DNA of 64,000 nucleotides. It comes from an uncultured delta proteobacterium. Its GTDB lineage: Bacteria > Desulfobacterota > RBG-13-43-22. Every line of letters begins with the position of its first letter. Position 1 is the stretch's first letter. The stretch lies in NCBI GenBank assembly GCA_963843145.1, contig CAWJJC010000017.1:160001-224000 (forward strand), read 5' to 3'. The notes under the pieces were generated by a model. That model was given only the letters and a program-made list of their open reading frames with translations. It did no database searches and was not told where the DNA came from. A program made the translations under genes and the position numbers. Below, piece after piece: positions 58,655-61,406 of this stretch.

Positions 58655-58924
58655 TACTGAGTATCCTTAGCGCTTGATTCTTTGCTAGAGTAATGGAGTA
58701 TTGTCTATTAAGACCATCTTTCCATTACTATGATTGAAAACTGAACGTCAGCATGCACTATACCTACTGAATCGGCCTCAGGGCAAGGGGTTTATCATCC
58801 CAGACGCCGCTGCTCAACTGCCTGAAATCCTTAACGCCCCCCCTCCCTAGACGGGAGGGGGTTGGGGGGCATAAGCGCTAACTTAGAAAGATTGTCATTC
58901 CGGCGAAAGCCGGAATCCAGTTCT

Positions 58925-59215
58925 TTAGACTATACTATTATACAGATCCTCCCAATTTCGATTCGTCTTTTCAATTAATTCCAGTTTCCATTTGCGTTTC
59001 CATTCTTTTATCTGCTTTTCCCGATTAATAGCGGCTTCCATGCTCTCGTGCAGTTCATACCAAACCAGTCGATGGACTCCATAGCGTTTGGTAAACCCTT
59101 CGACTAGGTTGTTCTTATGTTCCCAAATCCTTTTAACAAGGTCTGAAGTTACACCAACATACAGGGTCCCATTTCTTTGGCTTGCCAGAACGTATACCGC
59201 AGGGTGATTATCCAG
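58925..59215 (-). CDS. GIY-YIG nuclease family protein (YhbQ/UPF0213-like), CTG start
   Basis: Not in the ORF track. Translation PAVYVLASQRNGTLYVGVTSDLVKRIWEHK...AINREKQIKEWKRKWK; GGAGG RBS 6 nt before CTG. Confidence 0.88.
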   Translation of the reverse strand: MDNHPAVYVLASQRNGTLYVGVTSDLVKRIWEHKNNLVEGFTKRYGVHRLVWYELHESMEAAINREKQIKEWKRKWKLELIEKTNRNWEDLYNSIV

Positions 59216-59346
59216 TGGTGCCTCCCTGGATTCCGGCTTTCGCCGGAATCTGGAGTTTGGACTTTTTATGTCGGTATGTTATTAATTTAGTTGACATACA
59301 TATTTAAAGATGATATCCTCCCGGAAACAATCCGAAGGAGGGCATC

Positions 59347-59685
59347 ATGAACGAATCCCAGGTCCAGGACGTCATTTTTGAAGCGATTGAAACCAGCTTG
59401 GAAGCCCAATTGCGAGCCGTCCGGCGATTGCGATCCGGTAAAGAAACAGCTCCCCAGCGTAAAATCAGAAAAGGTATGTCCCAGGTAGACATGGCTTTCG
59501 ACATACTTTCAAGAACCGAGGGGCCGCTGCATATCAGCGAGATCATCCGTCGGATGGCCGAAGTCCATAATCGCCAAGTCGACCGGGAATCGCTGGTCTC
59601 GTCGCTGGTGAAAAAGGTCCAGCGAGGCGATCGTTTCGTGCGTACCGACAAAAATGTTTTTGGGTTGTTAAAAAAGGCTCGGTAG
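59347..59685 (+). CDS. IS accessory protein, winged-helix (HARE-HTH-like)
   Basis: AFDILSRTEGPLHISEII...SLVSSL...RFVRTDKNVFGL; 2 nt upstream of the transposase; RBS AAGGAGG. Confidence 0.75.
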   Translation: MNESQVQDVIFEAIETSLEAQLRAVRRLRSGKETAPQRKIRKGMSQVDMAFDILSRTEGPLHISEIIRRMAEVHNRQVDRESLVSSLVKKVQRGDRFVRTDKNVFGLLKKAR

Positions 59686-59687
59686 CC

Positions 59688-61064
59688 ATGTTGCTCCAAA
59701 CCTTCACCTCGCTGATGGCTGAAGGCTGGCGCCCGGTCTTTGCTCAACAGCGGACCCGGGAACGGGCCGTAGGACAGGCCTTGAGTCTGCCCTTGGTTCT
59801 GGGTCGGCGTACCATTTCCCGAAGTCTGTGCGCCCTGGATCGAGCGGATCGGGATTGGAGCGCGGACTACAAGTTGTTCTCCCGGAGCCCTTGGAAGGCG
59901 GCGGACTTGTTTGATCCCGTTTTGGACGCCTATCTGGGGCGCTATGACCGGGGTCCGGTGACGGTAGCCTTGGATGACAGTTTGTATCCGAAAACCGGGA
60001 AGAAGATCCCAGGAGCGCGATGGCACAAGGACCCGCTGTCTCCCCCGTTTCGAGTCAACTTGCGTTTTGGTTTGCGGTTTTTGCAGGCCAGTCTGCTTTT
60101 TCCTCTGCATCAGGAGGGTCCCTTTGCGGCGCGGGCTATTCCGATGGCGTTCGACCAGGCCCCCACCGTGAAGAAGCCCGGCAAGCGGGCTACCGACGAA
60201 GAGTGGCAGGCCTACCGTCGCTTGAAGAAGGAAATCAATCTGTCGTGTTCGGCCGTCCAGCAATTGGAGCGGTTGCGAAAAAGGCTGGACGATACCGGAG
60301 CCACCCATCGACGGCTGTGGGCCGTTCTGGACGGTAGTTTTTGTAATCGGACTTTGTTTCGGGCCTCCTGGGATCGGGTGATCCTCCTGGCCCGCTGTCG
60401 CAAAGATGCCCGCTTGTGCTACCCGGCGGCGGGGCCCGGTAAGCGGCGCTACGAGGCCCAGTTGTTTACTCCGGAATCGGTTCGGGCCGATTCCGGAGTG
60501 GTTTGGAAACGAGTCCGGATCTATTACGCGAATCGTCGACGTTGGATCCGAGTGAAAGAACGGAAGAACCTCTTGTGGCGCCGTGGGGCCGGCACCCAAC
60601 TCCTGCGGTTGATCGTGATTGCCCCCCAACCGTATAAAAACTCCAAAAAAGGGCGCACCTACTATCGGGATCCGGCTTATCTGTTGACCACCGATGTGAC
60701 CGCTTCTTTGAAACGACTGGTACAGGCCTATTTTGATCGTTGGCAGATCGAGGTCAATCATCGTGATCAAAAATCCTTGCTCGGGGTAGGTCAGGCTCAA
60801 GTGCATTCCCCAAAGTCCGTCCCCCGGCATCCCGCTTTATCGGTAGCTTCGTATAGTTTGTTGTTAGTGGCTGGCCTCCAAACGTATGGTCCGGGCCGTT
60901 CCCAGGCCCTCGCCCCTCTGCCTAAGTGGAGAAAGCAGCCGCCCCACCGTTTCTCTACGTTGGATCTGTTTACGCAACTGCGTCGTGAAATCAACGAAAC
61001 GTCAGTTTCTCCATTCCCAACACAAAATATATCGAAAAATCTCATGATTTATGCTTATACCTGA
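59688..61064 (+). CDS. DDE transposase (IS701-like)
   Basis: VALDDSLYPKTG, VLDGSF and AYFDRWQIEVNHRDQKS.LG (Y-2-R-3-E-6-K). Confidence 0.9.
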   Translation: MLLQTFTSLMAEGWRPVFAQQRTRERAVGQALSLPLVLGRRTISRSLCALDRADRDWSADYKLFSRSPWKAADLFDPVLDAYLGRYDRGPVTVALDDSLYPKTGKKIPGARWHKDPLSPPFRVNLRFGLRFLQASLLFPLHQEGPFAARAIPMAFDQAPTVKKPGKRATDEEWQAYRRLKKEINLSCSAVQQLERLRKRLDDTGATHRRLWAVLDGSFCNRTLFRASWDRVILLARCRKDARLCYPAAGPGKRRYEAQLFTPESVRADSGVVWKRVRIYYANRRRWIRVKERKNLLWRRGAGTQLLRLIVIAPQPYKNSKKGRTYYRDPAYLLTTDVTASLKRLVQAYFDRWQIEVNHRDQKSLLGVGQAQVHSPKSVPRHPALSVASYSLLLVAGLQTYGPGRSQALAPLPKWRKQPPHRFSTLDLFTQLRREINETSVSPFPTQNISKNLMIYAYT

Positions 61065-61406
61065 CCTGAAAAAGGTCCAAACTCCAGATTCCGGCTTTCG
61101 CCGGAATGACAACATAGAAATCGTCACCTTTTAAGTTAACGCGTATGGGGTTGGGGGGTGGGTGGATCCCCAGATCTTCGACGAATCCGGCCTCACTCCA
61201 TTCCTAACTGACTCCATTGTCGGGTCGGGCTAAGCCAATTCTCTCCCCTCAGTCCGGAGATTTTGGAATAATACCCAGAAAGAAAAAGAAAATCGGCCTG
61301 ATGAATTGGTTATTGACAATTCTGGTTTTCAAATGGAACTCTTCTTTGAGGAAAGCCGATGCTGCAGGTCTCTGACGAGTTCTGACGCATTCATGTCGAA
61401 TGAACC

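Follow-up and report, generated by a model that had tools for sequence, protein, structure and literature searches.

Hairpin-long target duplications of a two-gene insertion sequence from a deep branch of the IS4/IS701 superfamily

The insertion sequence (IS) described here is 1838 bp long and lies in a 64,000-nucleotide (nt) stretch of DNA from an uncultured delta proteobacterium (contig CAWJJC010000017.1, positions 160,001 to 224,000); we refer to this whole stretch as the window, and all coordinates are positions in it. The element (59250–61087) sits between two exact copies of a 20-bp hairpin, and in its clade 32 copies lie between exact direct repeats of 13–32 bp, each of which is a hairpin. 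Target duplications of fixed length normally serve to classify mobile elements and to locate their ends; in this clade, the length of the duplication appears to be set by the shape of the target. We consider it probable that the transposase captures a palindrome in its extruded form, the length of its footprint being dictated by the structure of the target and not by a fixed stagger. Judging by its sequence, the element in the window is an intact and recently active insertion sequence of the cut-and-paste type; its branch of the IS4/IS701 superfamily is deep and mostly uncultured.

The insertion sequence lies between two copies of one hairpin

The element is bounded by terminal inverted repeats of the form CTGGAGTTTGGAC(T/C)TTTT at 59250–59267 (plus strand) and 61070–61087 (minus strand), which agree at 17 of 18 positions (CTGGAGTTTGGACTTTTT on the left versus CTGGAGTTTGGACCTTTT, the reverse complement, on the right). 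Their tip, CTGGAGTTTGGAC, is conserved across the clade and is present with at most three mismatches in nearly all related loci. Between the inverted repeats lie two plus-strand open reading frames (ORFs) that are 2 nt apart. The first (59347–59685), preceded by GGAGG, encodes a protein of 112 amino acids (aa) in which a long helix at the N terminus precedes a winged helix-turn-helix; the second (59688–61064) encodes a DDE transposase of 458 aa with a Tn5-like fold. The preliminary description of this DNA, made from the letters of the window, had noted two coupled genes bracketed by terminal inverted repeats, and this organization is confirmed.

Directly outside both ends stands ATTCCGGCTTTCGCCGGAAT (59230–59249 and 61088–61107, both on the plus strand), a perfect stem-loop with an 8-bp stem and a 4-nt loop, ATTCCGGC-TTTC-GCCGGAAT. 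With up to two mismatches allowed, this 20-mer has four matches in the window, versus none in 100 shuffles. Repeat finding reports a direct repeat of 21 nt; because the last base of the insertion sequence, a G, is the same as flank base 59229, the boundary of the element is ambiguous by 1 nt, and the clade consensus CTGGAG...CTCCAG favors a duplication of 20 bp over one of 21 bp.

A paralogous, uninterrupted site in the same genome (locus L090, contig C28) reads ...CCTCCCTGG, then one hairpin with one mismatch, then GACAACATAGAA...; its left side (...TGCCTCCCTGG) and its right side match the left and right flanks in the window. L090 also shows the intact arrangement of a GIY-YIG nuclease gene, the gene into which the element has inserted in the window (see below). 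A single hairpin between identical flanks indicates that 20 bp were duplicated on insertion and that the GIY-YIG copy in the window lost its start. By this comparison, the 20-bp repeat is a real duplication made on insertion and, as had been suggested earlier, it equals a whole perfect stem-loop. The right flank, searched in 30 relatives, gave no orthologous locus that retains the GIY-YIG module (genome G002 matches only from query position 199). Four sequencing runs, searched as contigs, likewise yielded no orthologous empty site, as none joins across the element, a form of data that cannot show absence.

Hairpins flank the element throughout its clade

We surveyed 80 loci of 240 confirmed stretches, comprising relatives that are 46–97% identical, together with two copies from the genome of the window (82 loci). 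Members of the clade occur in many bacteria of soils and sediments, in assemblies labeled Acidobacteriota, Verrucomicrobiota, Thermodesulfobacteriota, Hydrogenedentota, Gemmatimonadota and others. The 13-nt end tip, with at most three mismatches, could be placed at both ends in 71 of the 82 loci, 11 being without such a pair, and flanks were analyzed in the 63 loci that have at least 30 nt on both sides. Counting as a hairpin any perfect stem of at least 5 bp that lies no more than 2 nt from the end of the element, we found one at the left end in 59/63 loci, at the right end in 54/63 and at both ends in 52/63, compared to 2.7% of control positions within these loci (206/7666).

The two flanks form an exact direct repeat of 13–32 bp in 32 of the 63 loci and a direct repeat with one mismatch in six; they differ in sequence in 22, and in three loci one copy is the reverse complement of the other and has an inverted loop. 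For the 51 loci on contigs of 10 kb or more, the corresponding numbers are 31 exact, 6 near, 11 different and 3 inverted. The 32 exact duplications stem from 19 assemblies, as told by contig names. In these exact cases, the repeat consists of one hairpin plus symmetric margins, nearly always of 0–2 unpaired nt per side; a scripted count gave margins of 0 nt in 10–11 cases, 1 nt in 15–16 and 2 nt in 2–3. Two loci were mis-scored by the script and read by eye (L062, 4-bp stem with 1/1 margins; L067, 5-bp stem with 0/0 margins). Moreover, the length of the duplication follows the length of the hairpin, with r = 0.93 across the exact cases. The proposal, originally made for the copy in the window, that target structure defines the length of the duplication thus holds across the clade, and a check of related copies for short, non-palindromic target duplications found none within it.

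Copies of one and the same element adjoin five unrelated hairpin sequences. Apart from the copy in the window, a 100%-identical second copy in the same genome (contig C9) adjoins on its right another hairpin, GGGCGAC-TTTA-GTCGCCC, with 1 nt in addition; past the other end of this copy, the contig ends after 2 nt. Two copies from other assemblies, L003 (97% identical) and L004 (96% identical), adjoin AGTCCCGCG-CTT-CGCGGGACT and GGGCGTGCC-TAC-GGCACGCCC, respectively, and a contig from run X1 is identical over 59386–61088 and then continues into CCCTCTCCC-AGA-GGGAGAGGG. The presence of near-identical copies at unrelated hairpins argues that the target is a shape, not a sequence.

Some further copies are of interest in their own right. 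L012 and L016 are near-identical (tree distance about 0.002), each at a different hairpin, in assemblies labeled Bacteroidales and Geobacter, which reflects either recent horizontal transfer or a binning error. In genome G031 (Hydrogenedentota; L095–L106), several copies are themselves interrupted by other DNA near element positions 193–206 and 1062–1068. Genome G032 (L116–L129) harbors a second, related element family of 1.76 kb with ends CTGGACTTTGGCTCTC, which also adjoins hairpins; one of its members, L129, has a 19-bp hairpin duplication. A tblastn search against 72,556 plasmids returned only two matches, at 25% identity.

The first gene is exchanged among elements of one transposase clade

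A census of the first gene covered 70 related elements. Homologs of the 112-aa protein (phmmer E values of 1e-22 to 1e-43) fill the slot of the first gene in 52 of them and end at, or overlap, the transposase start. As judged from this arrangement, the winged-helix gene is translationally coupled to the transposase gene and conserved in these 52 elements. The slot is occupied by DUF6788 (PF20586) in ten elements (L019, L020, L026, L027, L029, L030, L033, L045, L063 and L073) and by a 297-aa DruA/DUF4338 protein (PF14236, E = 6e-36) in eight, these last being 2.43-kb elements of Verrucomicrobia. Outside this setting, DruA is known from the Druantia defense system. Going by gene content, the first-gene slot is interchangeable within one transposase clade between winged helix, DUF6788 and DruA, and the three types require a minimum of four changes on a quick transposase tree. 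Six of the eight DruA-type elements have exact hairpin duplications (L036, L037, L062, L067, L072 and L078), and another, L066, has a duplication with one mismatch; L056 is the eighth. The DUF6788 element L027 is flanked by a 22-nt repeat with one mismatch.

A structural model of the first-gene product, with a predicted local distance difference test (pLDDT) score of 83.8, consists of a long helix (residues 3–30), a disordered linker and a winged helix (residues 46–107). Foldseek gave no match at E ≤0.001; the matches above that value are the Rok DNA-binding domain (2e-3), the RNA polymerase delta subunit (8x6g_E, 5e-3; 2krc, 3e-2) and generic winged helices. Profile scores remain below cut-off for both HARE-HTH (PF05066; 16.3 bits versus 25.9) and TIGR04567 (20.1 versus 42). 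The initial label "HARE-HTH-like" is therefore fair at most as a statement of a possible fold resemblance and goes too far as a family assignment, given the Pfam score and the weak matches to the N-terminal domain of the delta subunit. Most likely, the winged-helix protein is a putative DNA-binding regulator or assembly cofactor of transposition.

Inside the left end, 5' of both genes, lies a promoter-like site, TTGACA-17-TATCCT with TG (59291–59319, plus strand), which is a consensus match only, with 10 of 12 consensus positions matching. Within the first gene, a 46-nt stretch (59470–59515; element positions 221–266) is about 87% identical at the DNA level among elements whose transposases are only about 50% identical at the protein level; it could reflect strong coding constraint or a cis-acting site.

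The transposase is Tn5-like and a distant relative of IS701 enzymes

The best curated match of the transposase is NCBIfam NF049999 (transpos_IS701_3; E = 3e-38), with 131.7 bits below the cut-off of 170. NF033540 (56.1 bits versus 150) is likewise below its cut-off, IS4 models are far below theirs (at best 40.6 bits versus 152), and Pfam DDE_5 is just at threshold (27.1 versus 27.0). No IS1182 model was among the matches of the NCBIfam profile search at E up to 0.1. An AlphaFold model of the transposase (pLDDT 87.8) matches Tn5 transposase (1muh) best, over its whole length, with E = 8e-11, a template modeling (TM) score of 0.54 and about 12% identity in the structural alignment. The catalytic residues D96, D215 and E355, as well as Y348, R351 and K362, are invariant in 46 aligned transposases, and Y348-R351-E355-K362 constitutes a complete Y-x2-R-x3-E-x6-K (YREK) motif. 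Relatives in the clade measure 1.82–2.44 kb, and all carry a first gene.

One subgroup of IS701 duplicates 5 bp. For the family at large, passages of De Palmenaer 2008 (PMC2266710) state that almost all members duplicate exactly 4 bp and measure 1400–1550 bp, and that most members are without the YREK motif's tyrosine. The present element departs from IS701 in its curated score, in lacking a 4-bp duplication, in not being a single-gene element of about 1.4–1.55 kb and in its YREK motif, which is incomplete in IS701. With the IS4 family (sensu De Palmenaer 2008) it shares the DDE residues and the complete YREK motif; it has neither the model score nor the fixed duplication of about 7–13 bp of that family. 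With the IS1182 family it shares hairpin targets, which is a common behavior and not membership, and its transposase is unrelated by sequence.

Two elements from the phylum of the window, L160 and L161, are true members of NF049999 (395 and 317.6 bits). They resemble the present element in being built around DDE enzymes of the IS4 superfamily and in their end tips, CTAGAGTTTAGAG and CTCGACTTTGGCC, which are visibly related to CTGGAGTTTGGAC. They differ in having a single gene each in 1544 bp (L160) and 1530 bp (L161), compared to two genes in 1838 bp, hairpin duplications of 13–32 bp and the full YREK motif here. No hairpins were found at the flanks of L160 and L161; L160 has an AT-rich duplication of 6–8 bp. 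The L161 transposase is 22% identical to that of the window and bears W and R at the positions of the Y and K of the clade. The earlier designation "IS701-like" is loose, given the sub-threshold score of the best curated model, IS701_3, and the 22% identity to a true member. On these comparisons, the element is a distant relative of IS701-type elements without the defining features of that family.

A proposed model for capture of extruded hairpins

Since the target is duplicated and not deleted, joining should be 5'-staggered: the left border of the repeat marks the cut in the top strand, and its right border the cut in the bottom strand. Because these positions follow stem ends whatever the length and sequence of the stem, and B-form DNA is unmarked there, capture of a folded target is the simplest reading. 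In the model that we favor, the transposase would capture the palindrome as an extruded cruciform, i.e. as a four-way junction, and each 3'-OH of the transposon would attack the hairpin of its own strand at the 5' foot. The two cuts would be one whole palindrome apart in linear coordinates and neighbors at the junction; an enzyme descended from short-stagger ancestors could in this way yield a long and variable repeat, with gap repair copying the hairpin onto both sides. Each end would join independently at a 5' foot: use of one hairpin on both strands would give a whole-hairpin repeat, and use of two neighboring hairpins, one per end, would give no duplication and unlike flanks, a pattern also observed in the clade. 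Cutting at the base of an extruded cruciform, as first proposed for the window, remains the best explanation of hairpin-long duplications, with the conformation itself deduced from the sequence pattern, and past that pattern we infer every mechanistic step.

Several observations weigh against this model. In L012, the stem could extend past the duplication by 2 bp on each side, and in L021 by 1 bp on one side. Stems as short as the 5 bp in the 13-bp duplications should not extrude without help, so that induction or trapping of the structure would fall to the protein. One flank copy each of L007, L008 and L041 has its loop in reverse, an outcome not expected from simple gap repair; the hairpin of L041 is unique in its genome, and the flanks of this copy are inverted repeats over 37 nt. 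Furthermore, 22 of the 63 copies have different flanks at the two ends, 16 of them still with a hairpin at both. Contigs shorter than 8 kb account for 11 of these 22 copies, compared to 1 of the 32 exact cases, and as such contigs are short and the element is a multicopy repeat, assembly chimeras are a likely cause for those 11; the remaining 11 are on long contigs. Nor can recombination between copies explain all different-flank cases, as only one copy was found in each of the genomes of L023, L034 and L077. A junction of left hairpin and right hairpin that would represent an empty site was encountered at none of the surveyed loci, and in G031 the right-flank hairpin follows none of 29 paralogous repeat doublets.

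Some of the unlike flanks can be followed further. Flanks in G031 that have no match at the other end of their own copy agree with flanks of other copies, for example over 23 nt exactly between the left flank at C10:455515 and the right flank at C23:400328. This fits exchange by recombination between copies; however, the hairpins in G031 are repeats with dozens of copies, and a flank match therefore does not prove exchange. The left flank is itself a repeat in both L077 (another element of 940 bp) and L023 (a palindromic element of about 190 bp), so that no ortholog is readable there. The repeated element of about 940 bp, at L077 positions 1569–2508, has three copies in that genome and is present in many relatives. 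In L053 (= L112), the flanks are also reverse complements with an inverted loop, and in L041 and L053 the symmetry of the flanks reaches 37–43 nt beyond the hairpin.

Alternative explanations

The target could be a hairpin in single-stranded DNA, for example on the lagging-strand template or during repair, with replication completing the second flank copy and no cruciform arising in the duplex. Short GC-rich stems fold easily in single strands and extrude poorly from duplex DNA, and the Tn5-type fold with its YREK motif is tied to hairpin handling in the Tn5 literature, all of which would suit such a route. We nevertheless regard it as unlikely, since the symmetric margins of 0–2 nt are expected from two concerted attacks on opposite strands of a two-fold symmetric structure, and a second exact copy would need extra steps. 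The preliminary description had entertained the winged-helix protein as a targeting factor, and it is conceivable that this protein recognizes hairpins and directs the transposase to them, given that its gene is conserved and tightly coupled in 52/70 elements and that its predicted fold is that of a DNA-binding winged helix. However, 18/70 elements have another first gene, the type of which changes at least four times on the quick tree, and DruA-type elements still duplicate hairpins (exactly in 6/8, with one mismatch in L066, as does the DUF6788 element L027), which argues that targeting goes with the transposase and the ends. The winged-helix protein is probably not the hairpin-targeting factor, and we give that idea a low probability.

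A transposase might also read the palindrome as a symmetric dimer in B-form DNA, the duplication then representing a long fixed stagger. Palindromic hot spots are favored by some insertion sequences, such as IS30, and long duplications occur in other families, such as the IS1202 group. A fixed stagger is hard to reconcile with duplications that vary between 13 and 32 bp and follow hairpin length; moreover, even near-identical transposases use unrelated targets, and the end of a palindrome is not physically marked in B-form DNA, which renders this explanation very improbable. Finally, with hairpins at almost every end, one might suppose that they travel as part of the mobile unit or are assembly artifacts. 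Identical or near-identical copies with different hairpins, the single hairpin of L090 in the absence of the element, and the recurrence of the pattern in 19 assemblies and on contigs of 2.8 kb to 6.9 Mb leave this suggestion with next to no likelihood. Capture of an extruded palindrome with a structure-defined footprint thus remains the reading that we prefer.

Relation to known systems

Direct repeats of 0–60 bp are listed for IS1182 in ISfinder, and whole-palindrome duplication may be known to curators in that family. According to sections of Wan et al. 2017 (PMC5678879), IS1272 of the IS1182 family resembles the present clade in choosing its targets by hairpin structure, not by sequence, and differs from it in removing the hairpin and leaving no duplication, which their model ascribes to attack at the 3' foot. 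The same sections cite, without data, a review statement that some IS1182 members target palindromes, and sketch as a possibility for IS1272 a "pathway b", the outcome of which is the one seen here. IS1272 further differs in having a single gene and a transposase that is unrelated by sequence. The present element is thus a structure-targeting insertion sequence in a different transposase lineage, with an outcome opposite to that documented for IS1272, and the two, with proposed joining at the 5' foot here and at the 3' foot in IS1272, appear to be two outcomes of one geometric model.

Repeated palindromes also serve as landing sites for IS1397/ISKpn1 (IS3 family) and for IS110-family elements. 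These use a defined site in one family of repetitive extragenic palindromes (REPs), either the loop or a sequence-matched position, with a short duplication or none; here, any hairpin can serve and is wholly duplicated. In spacer integration by Cas1-Cas2 and in casposon integration, staggered attacks on opposite strands at the borders of a repeat, followed by gap repair, duplicate a whole unit. Those systems use Cas1 instead of a DDE transposase, and they integrate at a specific site, leader-repeat or tRNA-proximal, rather than at just any hairpin. Tn5/IS50 is similar to the present element in the whole-length fold match (1muh), the DDE residues and the complete YREK motif; we know of no structure-specific target for Tn5. 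IS50-type elements differ in their fixed duplication of 8–9 bp, as given in a portion of PMC2266710.

In the literature searched, which extended to neither ISfinder nor the supplements of PMC2266710, hairpin-length duplications are not described for IS701-like elements; nor does the literature searched describe a HARE-HTH accessory gene in a transposon. We tentatively raise the possibility that the clade is a family-level, undescribed Tn5-like branch, spread over at least five bacterial phyla, that uses an extruded four-way junction as its target and leaves a footprint as long as the hairpin. If so, its enzyme would be the first of the DDE transposases whose target duplication varies and is defined by structure, and its insertions would be a natural in vivo recorder of sites of hairpin extrusion; the interchangeable first gene would, in addition, tie the Druantia protein DruA to transposon biology. 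Because the footprint is set by target shape, annotation pipelines that expect 4–9 bp would misplace the ends of such elements or miss the duplication. With terminators, REPs and regulatory hairpins as landing sites, the elements should favor the ends of genes and arrays of repeats, as illustrated by the GIY-YIG gene that has lost its start here. How a Tn5-type transpososome captures non-B DNA could be studied in this clade, which combines clean natural data with a simple system of two genes, and a structure-specific integrase could have practical interest.

The interrupted GIY-YIG gene and its repeats

A minus-strand gene for a GIY-YIG nuclease (Pfam PF01541, E = 1.2e-16) contains, within its 5' end, the 20-bp hairpin, which there encodes FRRKPES. 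The original description of the hairpin as the core of a REP therefore needs a correction, in that it is not extragenic here; it is coding sequence near the start of a gene that was split by the insertion. The body of the interrupted gene (58928–59248, minus strand; frame read from the sequence) has no ATG, GTG or TTG start left upstream of the GIY motif. The severed start (MTISMLS...; 61108–61127, minus strand) now runs into the insertion sequence and stops (ORF 61002–61127, minus strand). A third copy of the hairpin, inverted, lies on the 3' side of the GIY-YIG cassette (58897–58916, minus strand) and is part of the target context, not of the insertion sequence.

The genome of the window contains 22 copies of the hairpin with at most one mismatch, among them three inverted pairs, each spaced by about 330 bp, with GIY-YIG cassettes between the two copies. 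To judge from Chenal 2025 (PMC11893778), gene and repeats together would fit Ssn, a family of single-strand GIY-YIG nucleases that have cognate repeats. The gene of about 100 codons bracketed by inverted 20-nt hairpins occupies 58897–59249 in the window, with related loci at L087 (contig C20) and L090. The cassette is nested in a longer palindromic module, which also exists without the gene, at L087.

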